Sequence record: PQ850601.1
Source: Escherichia phage ElsieAttenhofer_Bas105
Length of the DNA stretch: 39,718 bases
Direction: 5' to 3' (one strand)
The notes under the pieces were generated by a model. That model did not search any database and had not been told where the DNA came from. It worked only from the letters and a program-made list of their open reading frames with translations. Position 1 is the first letter of the stretch; every line of letters begins with the position of its first letter. The position numbers and the translations under genes were made by a program. Of this stretch, positions 4,899-39,625 are shown one piece after another.

Positions 4899-5243
4899 AT
4901 GGAACGTAACGCTAACGCATACTATGAGCTGCTGGCTGCAACTGTTGAAGCATTTAACGAGCGCATTCAGTACGACGAAATAGCTGAAGGAGATGATTAT
5001 CACGATGCGCTGCATGAAGTCGTAGACGATATGGTCCCGCACTACTACCACGAGATCTTCACGGTGATGGCTGCTGATGGTATTGACCATGAGTTCGAAG
5101 ACTCTGGGCTGATGCCTGATACCAAGGACGTAACGCGTATACTACAGGCTCGCATTTATGAGGCACTGTATAACGATGTGTCTAATAGCTCTGAGGTGGT
5201 CTGGTTCGAGGCTGAAGAGAGCGACGAGGAGGCCTGCGAGTGA
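4899..5243 (+). CDS. ocr: Ocr-like DNA mimic anti-restriction protein (T7 gene 0.3 homolog)
   Basis: 114-aa highly acidic protein; [43 protein letters not shown] nearly identical to remembered T7 Ocr; first gene after the early promoters. Confidence 0.85.
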
Positions 5244-9827: not shown

Positions 9828-9845
9828 ACTATCACTATAGGATTA
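9823..9845 (+). promoter_or_regulatory. Phage RNAP promoter (phi1.1-like)
   Basis: CTAAACTATCACTATAGGATT; predicted +1 at 9840. Confidence 0.7.
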
Positions 9846-9896
9846 GACTCAAGGTCATGACTCAAAGTCGTGGCCTTCATGATTAACCCTAACTCA
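9843..9896 (+). promoter_or_regulatory. RNase III-type processing stem-loop (R1.1-like), copy 2
   Basis: Stem AGGTCATGAC (9852-9861) / GTCGTGGCCT (9867-9876), loop TCAAA, two G-U pairs; conserved flanks as in copy 1. Confidence 0.5.
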
Positions 9897-10098: not shown

Positions 10099-10350
10099 AT
10101 GAGTAAACGATGGTTATTCGACGCATCCCCTAGCCAGTGGTCAGTGTTAGGCCGAACTCACCGCGAGATGAGTGAGGCAGGACTTGATGTCCTAATGGAT
10201 GACTCGCCGTGCTCCGGAAAAACTCTGGTCAGAGTAATTGAAGCAGACGGTGGGAGGCTTCTGGTCTCAAGAGAATTTACCGAAGATGAAATCTTTAGCT
10301 GTGAGCAATGGTGCTTACAACAATTGAACGCTTATAGGAGCTGGAAATAA
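10099..10350 (+). CDS. Gene 1.2-like protein (dGTPase inhibitor family, by position and C-terminal similarity)
   Basis: 83 aa versus 85 aa in T7; C-terminus EQWCLQQLNAYRSWK resembles remembered T7 gp1.2 TDWLNHMYDQLKDWK. Confidence 0.55.
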   Translation: MSKRWLFDASPSQWSVLGRTHREMSEAGLDVLMDDSPCSGKTLVRVIEADGGRLLVSREFTEDEIFSCEQWCLQQLNAYRSWK

Positions 10351-16599: not shown

Positions 16600-16763
16600 T
16601 GTTAAATAAACTTAAAGCTCGATACCATCGGTTCATGTACAAATGGTGGAGCGATGAAGCAACCTACCTGTCGAACATTCTGGGAGACCAGCGGTTCAAC
16701 TCTGAGGCATGGAAGAAAGCTAACCGGAAGTTCATATATCACTTCTTGCGTACAGACTACTAA
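16599..16763 (+). CDS. Small hypothetical protein (54 aa, GTG start)
   Basis: GTG with GGAGG 8 nt upstream; translation VLNKLKARYHRFMYKWWSDEATYLSNILGDQRFNSEAWKKANRKFIYHFLRTDY; lies between gene 4 and the next promoter. Confidence 0.35.
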
Positions 16764-16781
16764 GCTATCACTGTAGGATAG
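16759..16781 (+). promoter_or_regulatory. Phage RNAP promoter (variant)
   Basis: ACTAAGCTATCACTGTAGGATAG; +1 at 16776. Confidence 0.5.
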
Positions 16782-16825
16782 ACTCAAGGTCATTCATTTC
16801 GAGTGGCCTTTATGATTAGACTATA
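16779..16825 (+). promoter_or_regulatory. RNase III-type processing stem-loop, copy 3
   Basis: Stem AAGGTCATTC (16786-16795) / GAGTGGCCTT (16801-16810), loop ATTTC; conserved flank TAGACTCAAGG. Confidence 0.5.
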
Positions 16826-16834
16826 GGAGACATT

Positions 16835-17236
16835 ATGATTGACTGTAGTGAGTGGACCGGGTGCCGAGATAAGTTCGGCTATGGCATGCGCAGGGTCAAT
16901 GGGAAAGTCCGTAGGCTACATCTCATAGCATATGAGGAAGCTAATGGTCCAATACCAAAGGGACTGGTTGTCCGTCATAAGTGTGACAACCCGTCATGTT
17001 ATAACCCTGATCACCTAGAGCTTGGGACACGAGCTGATAACGTTAAGGACCGGGATGTCCGTGGACGTATAGCAAAGGGTGTAAAAGTTGGATGTGCCAA
17101 GTTGACACCTGAAATTGTAGCAGAGGCTAAGAGATTGTACGCTTCTGGTGGATGGACTCACCGCTCTCTGGGGGAGAAATACGGCGTAGGGCATAGGACA
17201 ATAGCCAGAGCGATTGGAGGTGCTACATGGATTTAA
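16835..17236 (+). CDS. HNH homing endonuclease
   Basis: 133 aa; HNH core RHKCDNPSCYNPDHLELGTRADN with Cys-rich zinc ligands; free-standing between the gene 4 and gene 5 modules; 3' end overlaps the gene 5 start. Confidence 0.85.
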   Translation: MIDCSEWTGCRDKFGYGMRRVNGKVRRLHLIAYEEANGPIPKGLVVRHKCDNPSCYNPDHLELGTRADNVKDRDVRGRIAKGVKVGCAKLTPEIVAEAKRLYASGGWTHRSLGEKYGVGHRTIARAIGGATWI

Positions 17237-19395
17237 GTAACGTTTATGGCTCCGACATCGAGACCAACGGTCTCCTTGACACCGTGTCCCAGTTCCATTG
17301 TGGGGTCCTGATTAAGGCCGAGTCGAATGAGACCCTTAAGTATGGGGTAGCGCCGATGGTCGGTATCGTCGGTGGCTTCAAAGAGTATGTACAGAAGGTG
17401 GAAGAAATTGCTGCAACGCCTACGGGTATGCTGGTCTTCCATAACGGTATCAACTATGACGTCCCGGCTATAGACAAGCTGAAGCGTTTGTACTTTGGGA
17501 AACGATTTAACTTCCCGAAACACAAGATGATTGATACCTTGGTGCTGGGCCGCTTGATGTATCCCAACATTAAGTTCTCAGACATGGGCGCGGTGAAAGC
17601 TGGTCGTCTGCCACCTAAGATGATGGGACGCCAGTCTCTTGAGGCTTGGGGCTATCGTCTCGGTGAGATGAAGGGTGAGTACAAACACGATTACGTTGCC
17701 AAGTGCAAGGCCGAAGGTATCGAATATAAGTCTGGGGACGAATGGTTGTTCCCGTCTCAGGAGATGCTGGACTATAACGTTCAGGATGTTGTGGTTACAC
17801 TGGCATTGTTCAAGAAATTCCTGACTGACAAGTATTACTTCCAGTCTGAACAGTTTGCTTTCGAACAGATTTATGCGCTGCGTCTGGAACATGATGCTGC
17901 GTGGACCTGTGCGAAGATGGAACGTAACGGCTATCCGATGAACACCGAGATGGTCGAAGGCTTATATCGTGAACTCACTGTCAAACGTGCGGAGTTGCTG
18001 GACAAGCTGCGCTCGACTTTCGGTAGCTGGTATGCACCGAAGGGAGGCAAGGAGTTCTTCAAGCACCCAAGGACAGGTAAGGACCTTCCGAAGTATCCGC
18101 GAGTCGTGTATCCTAAGGTCGGTGGCATCTTTAAGAAGCCGAAGAACAAAGCTCAACGCTTAGGTCTTGAGCCTTGTGAACTCGATACGCGAGACACGAT
18201 GGAGGGAGCACCATTCACGCCAATCACTTACGTTGAGTTTAATCCGGGAAGCGGAGACCACTTAGCGAAAGTCCTGATGGAGCGTGGCTGGGAGCCTGTG
18301 GACTTCACTGACACCGGGAAACCTGTAGTCGATGACGAGACGTTGGAACACGTTAAGTTACCAGACGCAGAGGCTCAGGCTTGCGTAGAGCTGGTCCGTG
18401 AGTATCTGGTGGTCCAGAAGCGCATCGGTCAGGCGGCTGAAGGTAAGAACGCATGGTTGAAACTTGTGGGTCCAGACGGACGTATGCACGGTTCAATCAA
18501 CCCTTGTGGAGCAGTAACCGGACGTGCGACCCATAGTTCACCAAATATGGCTCAGGTCCCGGCTAACGGTGCTCCGTATGGTGAGACTTGCCGTGGTGCT
18601 TTCGGTGCAGCGTGGAACAAGAAGGACGGTAAGCCAGACCCTTGGATTCAAGTGGGCGTGGATGCTTCAGGTCTTGAGCTTCGTTGTCTGGGGAACCGAG
18701 CGACTCCGTTTGATGGTGGTGAATACGCCAAGACTGTGGTCGAAGGTGACATCCACTGGGCCAACGCAGTCAACGCTGGGCTAGCACCTAACGTCCCACG
18801 CGACAAGTCGAGCCACGACCACGATGCTTTCCGTGATAACGCTAAGACGTTCATCTATGCGTTCCTGTATGGTGCAGGGGCCGCGAAGATTGGACTGATA
18901 GTTGGCGGTGGTAAGAAGGAAGGTGCTGCCCTGATGAAGAAATTCATTGAGGGTACACCAGCTATCAAGGATCTGCGAGAGGCTGTGCAGAACACGCTCA
19001 TCTCAGAGTCGAAGTGGGTAGATGGTGAGAACATCGTGAAGTGGAAACGGCGCTGGCTGAAAGGTCTGGATGGTCGTCGCATTCACATCCGGTCTCCACA
19101 CTCAGCACTGAACGCATTACTTCAGGGTGATGGTGCGGTTGTCTGTAAGCACTGGATTGTCGAGACCGAGCGTATGCTCGAAGAGGCCGGGTATGTCCAC
19201 GGCTGGGAAGGAGACTTTGCGTACATGGCATGGGTTCACGACGAATTGCAGATTGCGTGTCGTACTCAGGAGATTGCCGAAGAAGTCGTCAAGATTGCTC
19301 AACTTGCTATGCGTAAGGTGGGTGAGTTCTATAACTTTAAATGTGTCCTTGATACCGAAGGTAAGATTGGACCAACGTGGAAGGAGTGTCACTAA
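17227..19395 (+). CDS. DNA polymerase (T7 gene 5 homolog, family A)
   Basis: 722 aa; exonuclease motif DIETNGL, FHNG..YDVP, palm motifs RDNAKTFIYAFLYGAG and VHDELQ, colinear with remembered T7 gp5. Confidence 0.97.
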   Translation: MDLSNVYGSDIETNGLLDTVSQFHCGVLIKAESNETLKYGVAPMVGIVGGFKEYVQKVEEIAATPTGMLVFHNGINYDVPAIDKLKRLYFGKRFNFPKHKMIDTLVLGRLMYPNIKFSDMGAVKAGRLPPKMMGRQSLEAWGYRLGEMKGEYKHDYVAKCKAEGIEYKSGDEWLFPSQEMLDYNVQDVVVTLALFKKFLTDKYYFQSEQFAFEQIYALRLEHDAAWTCAKMERNGYPMNTEMVEGLYRELTVKRAELLDKLRSTFGSWYAPKGGKEFFKHPRTGKDLPKYPRVVYPKVGGIFKKPKNKAQRLGLEPCELDTRDTMEGAPFTPITYVEFNPGSGDHLAKVLMERGWEPVDFTDTGKPVVDDETLEHVKLPDAEAQACVELVREYLVVQKRIGQAAEGKNAWLKLVGPDGRMHGSINPCGAVTGRATHSSPNMAQVPANGAPYGETCRGAFGAAWNKKDGKPDPWIQVGVDASGLELRCLGNRATPFDGGEYAKTVVEGDIHWANAVNAGLAPNVPRDKSSHDHDAFRDNAKTFIYAFLYGAGAAKIGLIVGGGKKEGAALMKKFIEGTPAIKDLREAVQNTLISESKWVDGENIVKWKRRWLKGLDGRRIHIRSPHSALNALLQGDGAVVCKHWIVETERMLEEAGYVHGWEGDFAYMAWVHDELQIACRTQEIAEEVVKIAQLAMRKVGEFYNFKCVLDTEGKIGPTWKECH

Positions 19396-19685
19396 TGGCT
19401 ATTACTAAACGTATGCGAGTTTCGTTCTCGCTGGGTACTGTGTCGTCAACTGAAGACGTGGAGAACTTCAAGAAGACTCTATGTGAGCTGAGCCGTAAGG
19501 TCCTCAACGGAGAGAAGACCACTGGTTTTGAACGTAAGATGGTAGAGGTTGGTGTGACTGAAGGTCTGGAAGCTGTAGTCGAATTGGTCTTCAAGAAAGG
19601 TATCGTCGATGGGCTGAAAGAAGACCTGAGCAGTTACTCTGACATGCCGAGCTTTGGTAACTTCCGGGTGGAGTTCGAACGATGA
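19395..19685 (+). CDS. Gene 5.5-like protein (T7 gp5.5 binds host H-NS)
   Basis: Start MAITKRMRVSF resembles remembered T7 gp5.5 MAMTKRFKVSF; TAATG overlap with gene 5 stop; the track ORF starts earlier at 19377 but the internal ATG fits better. Confidence 0.65.
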   Translation: MAITKRMRVSFSLGTVSSTEDVENFKKTLCELSRKVLNGEKTTGFERKMVEVGVTEGLEAVVELVFKKGIVDGLKEDLSSYSDMPSFGNFRVEFER

Positions 19686-19891
19686 GTGAATACTTACGGG
19701 TCCTAGCGGCCCTTAAGTCCTGCCCGAAGACCTTCCAGTCAAACTATGTGCGCAACAACGCTGCACTTGTGGCTGAGGCTGCGAGTCGTGGACATCTAAG
19801 CTGCCTGTCTATGGACGGGCGTAACAACGGTGCGTGGGAGATTACCGCTGCTGGCACCAAGTTCCTGAACCAACACGGAGGCTGTCTATGA
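19682..19891 (+). CDS. Gene 5.7 homolog
   Basis: 69 aa; LKSCPKTFQSNYVRNNAALVAEAASRGHLSCL...GAWEITAAGTKFL nearly identical to remembered T7 gp5.7. Confidence 0.85.
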   Translation: MSEYLRVLAALKSCPKTFQSNYVRNNAALVAEAASRGHLSCLSMDGRNNGAWEITAAGTKFLNQHGGCL

Positions 19892-20220
19892 GCTTACTTG
19901 AAACTTTACAATCACTGCTGCGAGAGAACCCTTGGTCAGACGATCTGCCAGACGAGTGGGAAATCCTTGAGGATGGAGACTGGCGTGACAACCATAAGTC
20001 AGAAGCTAAAGAGGACATCGTTAAGCATCTGCCTTCAGGTAAAATCTTCCGGGCGTCTCTGGGTCGAACTGGTGACTACTGGCAGGGCTACGAGACCGAG
20101 TTCTATGATGCTGAAGAGGTTGAGCCTTATGAAGCGGTTGTGGTTCTTTACCGTCCTGTGAAACTTCTGGATGTCACTGTCCCAGCAATGAGTAAAGCCA
20201 AGGCGGTGAGCAATGAGTGA
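19888..20220 (+). CDS. Acidic hypothetical protein (110 aa) at the gene 5.9 position
   Basis: ATGA overlap with gene 5.7 stop; very acidic N-terminal half (DDLPDEWEILEDGDW); twice the length of T7 gp5.9 with no clear sequence match. Confidence 0.5.
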   Translation: MSLLETLQSLLRENPWSDDLPDEWEILEDGDWRDNHKSEAKEDIVKHLPSGKIFRASLGRTGDYWQGYETEFYDAEEVEPYEAVVVLYRPVKLLDVTVPAMSKAKAVSNE

Positions 20221-21079
20221 GAAGAAGATAGCTCTGGTTCTGGATGGCGACTATCTGGTATTCTCTTCTATGGCTGCTGCCGAGGACGAGACTGACTGGG
20301 GTGATGACATCTGGACCCTTATCTGCGACCACGAGAAGGCTCGTCGTATCCTTGAGAACACCATCGCTGAAATCGTTAAGAAGCGAAAGGCGTGGAAAGA
20401 CGCTAAGATTGTGATGTGCTTCACTGATGATTATAACTGGCGCAAGGACGTCCTGCCTACCTATAAGGCCAACCGTAAAGGTTCTCGCAAGCCTGTAGGA
20501 TACAAGAAGTTCGTAGCCGAAGTGATGGCCGACCCACGGTTCAACAGCTTCCTACGTCCTACGCTTGAGGGTGATGACTGTATGGGTATCATCGGGACAC
20601 GACCTCAGATTGTAGGCTGTGACCATGCTGTTCTGGTGTCCTGCGATAAGGACTTCAAGACCATCCCGAACTGTGAGTTCTTCTGGTTAACCACTGGTGA
20701 AATCCTGAGTCATACGACTGCTGAGGCAGACTACTGGCACATGGAGCAAACCATCAAGGGTGACAGTACAGATGGCTATGGTGGCATTCCGGGGATGGGT
20801 GAGGACACCACTCGTGCGTTCCTTGACGAGCCGTACTACTTCGTGCAGGAGAGCCGTGAGCTTAAGACTGGCAAGAACAAAGGCCAGATTAAGACCGAGT
20901 GGAAGAAGTATCCTAAGCGTGAAGACATGACGCTTTGGGACTGCATGGTGACTCTGGCTGCTAAAGCTGGGACGACCGAGGAGGAACTTCTGGTCCAAGC
21001 TCAGGTCGCTCGTATTTGTCGAGCCTCTGACTACGACCCTAAGTCCAAGGAGGTCATCCTATGGACACCATCCATGTAA
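20213..21079 (+). CDS. 5'-3' exonuclease (T7 gene 6 homolog)
   Basis: 288 aa; FEN-like N-terminus LVLDGDYLVF, acidic clusters, GIPGMG; position and size match T7 gp6. Confidence 0.9.
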   Translation: MSEKKIALVLDGDYLVFSSMAAAEDETDWGDDIWTLICDHEKARRILENTIAEIVKKRKAWKDAKIVMCFTDDYNWRKDVLPTYKANRKGSRKPVGYKKFVAEVMADPRFNSFLRPTLEGDDCMGIIGTRPQIVGCDHAVLVSCDKDFKTIPNCEFFWLTTGEILSHTTAEADYWHMEQTIKGDSTDGYGGIPGMGEDTTRAFLDEPYYFVQESRELKTGKNKGQIKTEWKKYPKREDMTLWDCMVTLAAKAGTTEEELLVQAQVARICRASDYDPKSKEVILWTPSM

Positions 21080-21153: not shown

Positions 21154-21205
21154 GTCTAACCGATAGTCATATCCTATCAATCCAACAGTCATCCATAGGT
21201 GAAAC

Positions 21206-21228
21206 ACTAAACTATCACTATAGGGACT
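21206..21228 (+). promoter_or_regulatory. Phage RNAP promoter (phi6.5-like)
   Basis: CACTAAACTATCACTATAGGGAC; +1 at 21223. Confidence 0.75.
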
Positions 21229-37438: not shown

Positions 37439-39625
37439 ATGTCCACGATTACACAATTCCCTTCAGGAAACACTCAGTACAGGATTGAGTTCGACTACCT
37501 AGCCAGAACGTTTGTTGTTGTTACGCTGGTGAATAGCTCTAACCCTACCCTGAACCGTGTAATGGAAGTTGGTCGAGATTACCGATTCCTTAATCCAACG
37601 ATGATTGAGATGTTGGTTGACCAATCAGGTTTCGACATCGTTCGTATTCACCGTCAGACTGGAACTGACTTAGTGGTAGACTTCAGGAATGGCTCAGTGT
37701 TGACAGCTAGTGACCTGACCAATGCAGAGCTTCAGGCTATCCATATTGCAGAAGAAGGTCGAGACCAAACTGTTGACTTAGCGAAGGAATATGCAGATGC
37801 TGCTGGTAGCTCTGCCGGCAACGCTAAGGATAGCGAGGACGAAGCAAGACGAATCGCTGCGAGTATCAAGGCAGCTGGTCTATTTGGATATATTACCCGT
37901 CGCTCCTTCGAGACAGGCTTCAACGTTACAGCATGGAACGAGGCCCTGCTATGGGAAGAGGATGGTGATTATTACCGCTGGGATGGTACGCTTCCAAAGA
38001 ACGTTCCTGCTGGTTCAACTCCTGAAACGTCTGGTGGCATTGGGTTAGGGGCGTGGGTCAGTGTTGGTGATGCTTCATTGAGAAGTGATTTGGCCCTAAC
38101 CACAGGCGCAGGTCGAGTTGGTACAACATCCGGCAGGACCGTACAGGCAGAGTTTGATATCCTCAAAATGGGATACAAGACGCCTGATGACTTTGGCGCA
38201 AAAGGAGATGGAAGCACAGACGACACCAATGCCATATTAGATGCCTGTTCGTGGGCCTCAACCAACGGACTGCCACTTAGAATTCCATGCAAAACATATG
38301 TTTGGAATGGCGACACTATACCATACGATAATGTGGCCATTATTGGCGATAAGCGGCCCTATGCAGATTCATGGCTAACACGTCTTCTTGATGGCAGCAT
38401 TATCGTCGGTACGCTCAGATTTAGTGGCAAAAACGTACAAATCAGCAATATTGGAGTCGATCACGGTTCGTTCCGGTTCCCATCTATAGCTGGTGATGCT
38501 CTCACCGTCTCAGCTCCTGAAAAATCAGGGCAGTATTGCGTTATAAGAAACTGCATTGGGCTGGGACGAAATCCAACCGATGCATTTCACTCTATTCTGG
38601 TGGAGGGTTATAAATATTCAATTATTGAAGATTGCATAGGCATACAGAATACATATAGCCTCGCGCACAAAAGTGGTTATTCAATCACGAATAATATAAT
38701 ATCCAGAAACTCAAACACAGGTGTTATTGTTAAATCTGATAGTGCATTTGGTGATGCCAGTTTCTCTAATATTACCAATATTACCATTGATGGAAATGAA
38801 AACTGCAATATTGGCTTGTGGGTTTTTGCGCAAGACGCTCAACTACAGAAGGTTAATGTATCGAATATTGTAACGTCTGGATGTAAATACGACATGGTGG
38901 TGCAGTCTGATACTGGCGTCATCAATGAAATTAACATTAACAATCTGGCAAGCTCTGGAGCGTCCATAGCGTCACTAGCACTGGTGGCTAATGCAGCCGA
39001 TAAAATATACACCGTAAACATATCAAATGTTTCAGCTGGCGAAGTTACTGGGCAAATTATTGATGCACAGGCGGCTAATTTGCTAAACATATCTAATGTG
39101 AACGGGCGAATTACTAGTGAATCTACCCACGTTAATGACTCTATAAAGATAGGACCATTAGTCAATGTTTCAAATCTTGTTAATATCACACCAACTTTGA
39201 ACTATGACCTTGTCTCTCAGGCTGGAGTGACTTTTAACAACGCTTTTGACAAGAACAGCATCAGTAATGTTCGCGCTGCGATATATGGAAGCGGCGCGCC
39301 GCGACCCGGGTATGCAACACAGGATGCAAGCGGTGATTCTGGAGTGCTTTCGGTAAGATACAGCCAGACAAACTCGTCATTCCTAAAGCTAACGCTTCCG
39401 TCAGGAGCAGCTGAGATAGCTACCATAAACACAACAGCCATCAATGGTTCGGTAATACCTGAAGGGTATGTTTTATGGATACAAAACGCCACCGCCGGGC
39501 AAAACCTAACGATAACGCCTTCTACTGCTGGTCATATCGTTACAACCGGGAATACTGCAAAGGTGTTAGCTGGCGGTGATAAGGTTGGGTTTATGTTTGA
39601 TGGGAGCACCTGGATTCAGATGTGA
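37439..39625 (+). CDS. Tail fiber / tailspike: T7 gp17-like N-terminal adaptor fused to a pectate-lyase-fold (beta-helix) depolymerase-like domain
   Basis: 728 aa; N-terminal 150 aa align with remembered T7 gp17 (YLARTFVVVTLV, DYRF, VDFRNGSVLTASDLTNAELQAIHIAEEGRD); central region carries the hallmark DFGAKGDGSTDDTNAI and repetitive N/S/T/V-rich beta-helix rungs. Confidence 0.9.
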   Translation: MSTITQFPSGNTQYRIEFDYLARTFVVVTLVNSSNPTLNRVMEVGRDYRFLNPTMIEMLVDQSGFDIVRIHRQTGTDLVVDFRNGSVLTASDLTNAELQAIHIAEEGRDQTVDLAKEYADAAGSSAGNAKDSEDEARRIAASIKAAGLFGYITRRSFETGFNVTAWNEALLWEEDGDYYRWDGTLPKNVPAGSTPETSGGIGLGAWVSVGDASLRSDLALTTGAGRVGTTSGRTVQAEFDILKMGYKTPDDFGAKGDGSTDDTNAILDACSWASTNGLPLRIPCKTYVWNGDTIPYDNVAIIGDKRPYADSWLTRLLDGSIIVGTLRFSGKNVQISNIGVDHGSFRFPSIAGDALTVSAPEKSGQYCVIRNCIGLGRNPTDAFHSILVEGYKYSIIEDCIGIQNTYSLAHKSGYSITNNIISRNSNTGVIVKSDSAFGDASFSNITNITIDGNENCNIGLWVFAQDAQLQKVNVSNIVTSGCKYDMVVQSDTGVINEININNLASSGASIASLALVANAADKIYTVNISNVSAGEVTGQIIDAQAANLLNISNVNGRITSESTHVNDSIKIGPLVNVSNLVNITPTLNYDLVSQAGVTFNNAFDKNSISNVRAAIYGSGAPRPGYATQDASGDSGVLSVRYSQTNSSFLKLTLPSGAAEIATINTTAINGSVIPEGYVLWIQNATAGQNLTITPSTAGHIVTTGNTAKVLAGGDKVGFMFDGSTWIQM

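Follow-up and report, generated by a model that had tools for sequence, protein, structure and literature searches.

The window, by which we mean the whole analysed stretch of 39,718 nucleotides from Escherichia phage ElsieAttenhofer_Bas105 (PQ850601.1), is the genome, in circularly permuted form, of a T7-like phage belonging to the genus Kayfunavirus, and shares ~93-94% nucleotide identity with phage K1F and its relatives in the polymerase-to-connector region. The subject of this analysis is an open reading frame (ORF) of 110 codons on the + strand at 19888-20220, for which the ORF list and its translation give a product of 110 amino acids (aa). It lies in the slot between genes 5.7 and 6, where T7 and T3 carry gp5.9, and profile matches identify the flanking genes as gp5.5-like, gp5.7-like and gp6 exonuclease. 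The immediate locus is composed as follows:

19682-19891, + strand, gene 5.7 homologue (phrog_1334, E 7.3e-39), whose stop overlaps the start of the ORF
19877-19881, + strand, Shine-Dalgarno sequence GGAGG as read from the sequence, within the end of gene 5.7 and with a 6-nt spacer to the ATG
19888-20220, + strand, coding sequence of the 110-aa protein of the Y04K family, stop codon included (ORF and translation, phrog_18166, PF26835 on homologues, and the ratio of nonsynonymous to synonymous substitution rates, dN/dS)
20213-21079, + strand, gene 6, 5'-3' exonuclease (phrog_107, E 2.3e-79; PF02739), starting inside the end of the ORF

The ATG of the ORF (19888-19890) overlaps the TGA of gene 5.7 (19889-19891) as ATGA, the stop codon of the ORF occupies 20218-20220, and the start of gene 6 at 20213 falls within its last codons. 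These coordinates, the ATGA overlap and the flanking genes agree with the earlier note on this DNA, which had placed a 110-aa ORF at the gene 5.9 position in translational coupling with gene 5.7. The larger unit is delimited by two phage promoters, both recognised among direct-repeat families (D1-D4 for the upstream copy):

16749-16783, + strand, nearest upstream copy of the phage promoter (CTAAGCTATCACTGTAGGA), at the start of the unit HNH-5-5.5-5.7-ORF-6
21202-21226, + strand, next phage promoter, 3' of gene 6, at the end of the unit that bears the ORF

Since phage-type promoters (CTAAACTATCACTATAGG) stand at ~16.76 kb and 21.20 kb, the ORF is placed within the middle-gene unit HNH-5-5.5-5.7-ORF-6. 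Its dN/dS ranges from 0.05 to 0.24 against seven homologues, including pairs with near-saturated synonymous sites, and the ORF is under purifying selection.

The encoded protein almost certainly belongs to the Phage_T4_Y04K family (PF26835), of which gp49.2 of phage T4 is the founder. It matches phrog_18166 (E 5.6e-33) and phrog_2294 (E 4.6e-8), and in a collection of 5.8 billion proteins PF26835 is precomputed on each of the 23 homologues (23/23), which are 50-96% identical to it. The assignment of the ORF to PF26835 rests on these homologues; the Pfam scan of the ORF protein itself was empty because the local Pfam copy is without that model. Homologues of the ORF are present in 111 phage records, and a profile search at E ≤1e-3 recovered 208 clusters (50% identity) of proteins that are nearly all 85-110 aa long, the family consensus being E-x-V-E-x-G-x-W-x3-G-K-Y ... 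R-S-G-S-Y-x-S-D-Y-E-Y ... E-V-E-P. T4 gene 49.2 was reached stepwise via orf28 of Vibrio phage ICP3 and gp031 of Salmonella phage 7-11, and the family profile aligns with T4 gp49.2 over 68 columns with an hhalign probability of 98.2% (E 3.7e-14). In UniProt this T4 protein is Y04K, the 'uncharacterized 12.6 kDa protein in pin-nrdC intergenic region'. It resembles the ORF protein in the motif W...K...R-S/T-G-S/D-Y/H-aromatic...Y...E-V, in size and acidity, and in its location, both genes lying in variable stretches of early/middle genes. However, the two are only ~21% identical in the profile alignment, the T4 protein is without the 18-residue tail found in the window, and the neighbours differ, being gene 5.7 and the exonuclease for the ORF but pin, 49.1, 49.3 and nrdC for T4 gp49.2.

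Structure matches in BFVD at E <1e-3 were to uncharacterised proteins of Vibrio, Serratia, Aeromonas and Bacillus phages, and weaker matches (E 3.7e-3 to 3.4e-2) extended to Mycobacterium and Streptomyces phages. The only label on the matches with E <1e-3 was 'nucleotide reductase subunit C'. This label, which as 'ribonucleotide reductase' or 'nucleotide reductase subunit C' is attached to phrog_2294, to the VP4 and ICP3 proteins and to RefSeq T4p082, was rejected for lack of any domain support, and appears to be annotation drift from the nrdC neighbourhood of T4. It is carried across hundreds of phage records, including those of Vibrio phages VP4 and ICP3 and the JSF series. Two long proteins with repeated profile matches (P0079 and P0150) were also discarded; they are fn3/aRib repeat proteins, and their matches are therefore spurious beta-hairpin matches. 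A single weak match to Nmad4 (E 6e-4) was obtained with one of 76 family members. A PDB sequence search returned nothing similar to the ORF protein, and no functional study was found in the literature on PF26835, Y04K, T4 gp49.2, pin-nrdC or gp5.8. The ORF is a new member of a family that is defined in Pfam but functionally uncharacterised.

The manner in which the gene occupies its slot is that of a cassette. In a three-way DNA alignment, K1F is shorter by exactly 325 bases than both the window and Shigella phage SFP21A, in which the extra bases lie between two ATGAG pentamers:

19888-19892, + strand, left ATGAG cassette junction (alignment with K1F and SFP21A)
20213-20217, + strand, right ATGAG cassette junction, coinciding with the start of gene 6 (same alignment)

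The cassette is present in some close relatives and missing from others; K1F has no gene in the slot, and there the stop of gene 5.7 overlaps the start of gene 6 directly. A Y04K gene is found in the 5.7/6 slot of Kayfuna-, Eluna-, Helsett-, Berlin-, Apdecima- and Chatterjeevirus phages. Other Studiervirinae genera have orthologues of the ORF in the slot, namely Erwinia L1 gp5.8, Yersinia AP10 '5.8' and Vibrio ICP3 orf28 with its VP4 counterpart, at 35-65% identity to the ORF protein; the C-terminal tail is absent in the L1, fPS-59 and ICP3 proteins, and the N-terminus is extended in those of ICP3 and VP4. The ORF is a genuine accessory gene of the middle class (class II), conserved yet dispensable.

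A 9-bp direct repeat, GCAATGAGT, is present at 20185-20193 and 20210-20218, the two copies being 25 bp apart. The second copy includes the ATG of gene 6, and the first encodes, in frame, Met101-Ser102 of the ORF tail. The repeat may be a footprint of the joining of the cassette to gene 6.

The ORF protein is acidic, as the earlier note had it, with an isoelectric point (pI) of 4.48, a net charge of -12, and 24 Asp and Glu against 12 Lys and Arg. The note had also singled out a strongly acidic N-terminal half. The segment in question, ENPWSDDLPDEWEILEDGDWRD, is indeed found at residues 13-34, but the acidity is not confined to this half, since a second acidic cluster occupies residues 69-82 and the net charges of the N- and C-terminal halves are -7 and -5. 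Acidity is a trait of the whole Y04K family, in which the median net charge is -11 (5-95% range -15 to -6), the median pI is 4.5, and pI is below 5 in 96% of the members.

An AlphaFold2 (AF2) model based on a 76-sequence family alignment was obtained with a predicted local distance difference test score (pLDDT) of 92.4 and a predicted template modelling score (pTM) of 0.70. Its topology is a helix (residues 3-13) packed on a five-stranded antiparallel sheet and followed by an extended C-terminal segment; with a shallower alignment the topology was unchanged, though the model confidence was lower. The protein can be divided accordingly:

19888-20163, + strand, core Y04K domain, residues 1-92 (AF2 model), with W32, K37, R60, G62, Y64/W65, Y68, V78 and Y88 conserved
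within the core, helix 3-13 and strands 24-28, 33-35, 38-47, 53-63 and 67-78, with a conserved extended segment thereafter
20164-20217, + strand, C-terminal tail LLDVTVPAMSKAKAVSNE, residues 93-110, subgroup-specific (model pLDDT 76-80)

Tail positions 93-110 are occupied in 16-56% of family members, with occupancy declining along the tail, and within the 110-aa subgroup the amino acids at these positions are preserved even though synonymous changes have occurred. Since residues 93-110 are confined to this subgroup, what had been taken for an enlargement is a short tail and not a second domain.

Conservation in the core was assessed in a 163-sequence family alignment. G62 is conserved in 100% of the sequences, K37, R60 and V78 each in 98% and W32 in 94%, while positions 64, 65, 68 and 88 are aromatic in 90-99%. 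All of these conserved residues (W32, K37, R60, G62, the aromatics 64/65/68/88 and V78) are found in the window protein. None of the acidic positions is invariant, and the best of them keep Asp or Glu in 60-79% of members; acidity is conserved as a bulk property of the family, not position by position. Judged from the strand register, the near-invariant residues appear to cluster near the hairpins 30-39 and 60-68, at one end of the sheet. The protein has a compact alpha/beta fold and no catalytic or enzymatic signature. These data bear on the suggestion that the protein is a DNA mimic directed against a nuclease. The predicted structure is a compact globular domain, an outcome that the earlier note itself had named as counter-evidence, and its invariant residues are not acidic, which speaks against this suggestion, while the negative bulk charge that it calls for is kept. 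DNA mimicry is weakened but keeps some likelihood, because the bulk charge is conserved family-wide and clearly under selection, and natural mimics have many folds.

Some family members have short Cys-rich extensions, exemplified by an N-terminal CxxC...CxC in one (P0024) and a C-terminal CWGC...C in another (P0018, RDN8.1). Such extensions may be zinc-binding add-ons or miscalls of starts and stops.

The genomic surroundings of the family are a further source of evidence on its role. A strict family motif, built from a 10-sequence sub-alignment and limited in sensitivity by its strictness, matched only 5 loci in the 185,579 species genomes of GTDB; the family is rare in bacterial genomes and phage-restricted. 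In a T7-like element of Paraburkholderia the Y04K gene overlaps the FEN exonuclease gene, with a different upstream neighbour, and in Paenibacillus prophages it directly follows PolA. Among 53 Y04K loci in IMG/VR, a gp6-like exonuclease is encoded within 5 kb in 20, PolA within 5 kb in 23 (nearly always upstream, and in several loci directly adjacent), and one or the other in 27. In half of the exonuclease-bearing loci (10/20) the exonuclease gene is the next one downstream and overlaps the Y04K gene in its coordinates, and the Y04K sequences at these loci are diverse. Elsewhere among the 53 loci, most neighbours that have a name are DnaB-like helicases, primases, endonuclease VII, repair exonucleases, thymidylate synthase and RNA ligase, and most of the neighbour families that recur are unnamed.

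The most revealing case is provided by three prophage contigs of the Firmicute temperate-phage type, in which an SbcC/Rad50-like ABC ATPase of 761-772 aa carries a C-terminal Y04K domain:

contig L065, 2931-5216, SbcC-like::Y04K fusion
contig L066, 2898-5216, SbcC-like::Y04K fusion
contig L069, 2913-5216, SbcC-like::Y04K fusion

A Walker A motif, a coiled coil bearing a CPTC hook and the C-terminal half of the ATPase are all present in the ATPase part, which is best matched, at 46% identity, by a protein of a Clostridium perfringens phage. The fused domain is recognised by our own hidden Markov model (HMM) of the family (domain E 9e-22) and by phrog_2294 (7.9e-14), and is itself acidic (-6 to -8). 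Homologous ATPases of Listeria, Staphylococcus and Clostridium phages are without the Y04K domain. The fusion gene lies directly upstream of genes for RecT, a metallo-hydrolase, a DnaD-like initiator and a Holliday-junction resolvase. Since the three copies are 92-95% identical, they represent one evolutionary event. Across the phages surveyed, the association of the Y04K family with phage nucleases of recombination and replication is a persistent one.

The reading that we favour, at a probability of about one in three, is that the ORF protein is a non-catalytic binder acting at DNA-end processing, most likely by blocking a host nuclease of the RecBCD class. The protein would work by stoichiometric binding, its conserved Lys/Arg/aromatic patch, set on an otherwise strongly negative surface, recognising the target, and by blocking the host end-processing nuclease it would constitute a non-homologous functional replacement of gp5.9 or Gam. 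There is some contextual support for an anti-nuclease role, in that the family accompanies recombination and replication nucleases and, at the 5.7/6 slot, alternates with gp5.9, a proven RecBCD inhibitor. Such a role is favoured because phage genes of like function that are not homologous often replace each other in situ, because inhibitors of host nucleases characteristically sit in recombination modules, and because the window yielded no other recognisable RecBCD inhibitor. The gam-bet-exo module of lambda, abc of P22 and T7 5.9 beside 6 are examples of such modules. Lambda Gam and P22 Abc2 are, like the ORF product, small accessory proteins encoded beside phage recombination enzymes, but they have no homology to the Y04K family and different folds, and the likeness is one of context only.

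Several observations weigh against this assignment. The literature yielded no experimental datum for any member of the family. The invariant residues are basic, aromatic or glycine, and would fit ligand binding or a structural core equally well. Family members occur in phages of hosts as different as Proteobacteria, Firmicutes and Actinobacteria, whose end-processing nucleases are not the same (RecBCD, AddAB, AdnAB), and gp5.9 for its part is specific for RecBCD. The fusion to an SbcC-like ATPase, which is known from a single lineage, points more naturally to a partner in phage recombination than to a host inhibitor. Furthermore, the adjacency to gene 6 is partly inherited and does not count as independent evidence, since T7-like synteny is rigid, and K1F manages without any gene in the slot.

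A more ambitious form of the proposal is that the Y04K family as a whole is a new and very widespread class of inhibitors of host DNA-end-processing nucleases (RecBCD, AddAB), built on a globular acidic alpha/beta domain. We regard this generalisation as rather doubtful. If true, the class would share no homology with Gam, gp5.9 or Abc2, and it would explain the alternation with gp5.9, the proximity to exonucleases and polymerases, and the tethering to an SbcC-like ATPase.

The strongest competitor to a blocker of a host nuclease, somewhat less probable but a serious one, is that the protein has no host target and serves the phage's own recombination and replication nucleases (the gp6 FEN exonuclease, PolA or SbcC-like complexes) as an accessory subunit or regulator, for instance an adaptor that recruits or tempers these enzymes. 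The translational coupling to genes for gp6-type exonucleases, which is seen across diverse Autographiviridae-like elements and also at loci with another gene upstream, fits this well, as does the position directly downstream of PolA in Paenibacillus and on large IMG/VR contigs. The SbcC-like fusion beside RecT amounts to a Rosetta-stone argument for one complex, and the broad host range and invariant polar residues of the family are consistent with a phage-encoded partner. Nevertheless, the protein must be dispensable for the enzymes concerned, because K1F and T7 have closely related genes 5 and 6 and are without the ORF. T4 49.2 is not located beside a FEN homologue or a polymerase but in the variable pin-nrdC stretch, and a cassette-like pattern of presence and absence is more typical of host-directed accessory genes.

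We consider it unlikely, but not to be neglected, that the protein serves in counter-defence unrelated to DNA ends. The leading version of this explanation is a small oligomeric sponge that would sequester a phosphate-bearing immune signal, such as a cyclic nucleotide or a derivative of ADP-ribose (ADPR), by means of Lys37, Arg60 and the aromatic residues. Sponges have been described as short oligomers with positively charged pockets, and the invariant Lys37/Arg60/aromatic pattern therefore matches the published description, the two invariant basic residues and the aromatics being set in an acidic protein. The family is also short (~90 aa), phage-restricted and widespread across phage taxa, T4 already encodes several sponge proteins, and the variable slots in which the family resides have proven anti-defence genes, T7 gp5.9 and T6 Gp49.2, as their alternative occupants. 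On the other hand, there is no Pfam sequence match to known sponge families, Sequestin (PF21825) gave no hit, and Lockin gave a weak fold match only. The sponge-screen paper's supplementary files contained no family motif, nor did those of an accessory-gene screen or of EVADES (in the latter case also no PF26835 or Y04K), although these files are possibly incomplete. A sponge would, moreover, leave the association with recombination modules and the SbcC fusion unexplained.

Very improbable is a third alternative, namely that the ORF protein inhibits the OLD ATPase-TOPRIM defence nuclease in the manner of the published 'Gp49.2'. A 2026 paper reported that a protein of this name abolishes the defence conferred by the P2 OLD ATPase-TOPRIM nuclease, and the family of the ORF includes T4 gp49.2, which bears the same gene name. 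Transfer of the function was rejected, the published protein being a 56-aa product of T6 in which M13, T15 and W32 match the numbering of the paper. Both proteins are small accessory proteins encoded in the same T-even slot, a variable one in which T4 has 49.2 and 49.3 and T6 has two different small genes:

AP018814.1, 44192-44386, T6 'Gp49.2' locus
NC_000866, 47506-47826, T4 gp49.2 locus, sharing name and slot with the T6 locus but encoding an unrelated protein

BLASTP of T6 Gp49.2 against T4 gp49.2 found nothing, and against the family profile the hhalign probability was 2.4%. In the same 2026 study, T2 and T4 were restricted by OLD and rescued by the T6 protein, yet both phages carry a Y04K-type gene. 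The anti-OLD function is not transferable to the ORF, because T6 Gp49.2 is unrelated to T4 gp49.2 and to the Y04K family. T6 Gp49.2 contains the string 'MVTIP', which recalls 'LVTIP' in T7 gp5.9; BLASTP finds no alignment between the two.

Finally, the idea in the earlier note of an enlarged, diverged or fused inhibitor, taken here as a version of gp5.9 that acts as a coiled-coil DNA mimic on the RecB arm, is scarcely credible and, as judged by sequence comparison, refuted at the homology level. The gp5.9 protein dimerises as a parallel coiled coil, with a short sheet of N-terminal beta-strand as a brace, and its inhibition is specific for RecBCD among end-processing nucleases (Wilkinson et al.). 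By attaching to the RecB arm it prevents RecBCD from binding DNA. It is a coiled-coil DNA mimic and also an inhibitor of MukBEF. What it shares with the ORF product is the slot between 5.7 and 6 with coupling on both sides, and the character of a small, acidic (low-pI), dispensable accessory protein. The two differ in size (52 aa in gp5.9, 110 aa here), in fold, the model of the ORF protein being a helix with a five-stranded sheet, and in distribution, which is broad over phage families for Y04K and narrow for gp5.9. The note's own remark that similarity to gp5.9 is not obvious was borne out, as BLASTP of the ORF protein against T7 gp5.9 (NC_001604) gave no alignment at E ≤100 and tblastn of gp5.9 over the whole window revealed no homologue (best E 0.17). 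Homologues of gp5.9 form a tight group of 187 records in the phage collection, nearly all at least 80% identical and with no intermediates toward the ORF protein; among the matches listed, 40/40 adjoin the exonuclease. The ORF protein, by contrast, belongs to a separate Pfam family that includes T4 gp49.2, has a confidently predicted different fold, and owes its extra length to the 18-residue tail. It is unrelated to gp5.9 and not a larger version of it.

RecBCD is a hub of phage-host conflict. Its inhibition protects phage DNA but trips sentinels such as retron Ec48 and P2 OLD, and the contents of the gp5.9 slot in T7-like phages without gp5.9 are relevant to how these phages handle this trade-off between protection and sentinels. 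The ORF is ordinary for its phage group. Its family, however, is large and counts a T4 gene among its members, and a testable hypothesis can now be attached to it. The evidence from context (FEN exonucleases, PolA and the SbcC-like fusion beside RecT) narrows a 'hypothetical protein' to a few candidate roles. Two annotation traps are corrected at the same time, these being the unsupported reductase label and the confusion of the T6 anti-OLD 'Gp49.2' with the different T4 gp49.2.

Other genes of the window include two small accessory genes and the tailspike gene:

4899-5243, + strand, Ocr-like anti-restriction protein of 114 aa, net charge -26, pI 4.05 (phrog_2568, E 1.4e-54)
10099-10350, + strand, gp1.2-like dGTPase inhibitor, a host-directed accessory protein (phrog_6515, E 1.9e-38)
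37439-39625, + strand, tailspike with T7 tail-fibre N-terminal, TSP1/Gp66 N-terminal, pectate-lyase-like depolymerase and depolymerase C-terminal domains

The Ocr-like protein is the clearest DNA-mimic candidate of the phage. K1F is known for its endosialidase tailspike. No sialidase domain was detected in the tailspike of the window, and the host surface target therefore probably differs from that of K1F.

A 52-nt element is repeated at 85% identity at 459-510 and 9843-9894, with a third, partial copy at 16802-16818, and at least two of the three copies are directly downstream of a phage promoter. The copies are probably RNase III-type processing hairpins, since each holds the inverted repeat AAGGTCAT...GTGGCCTT. 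A free-standing HNH_3 endonuclease gene (16835-17236, + strand) overlaps the beginning of the DNA polymerase gene (17227-19395, + strand), which is itself uninterrupted. The homing-endonuclease arrangement thus differs between the window and K1F, where the annotation joins the parts of gene 5 across an HNH gene, 5.3, that lies inside it.

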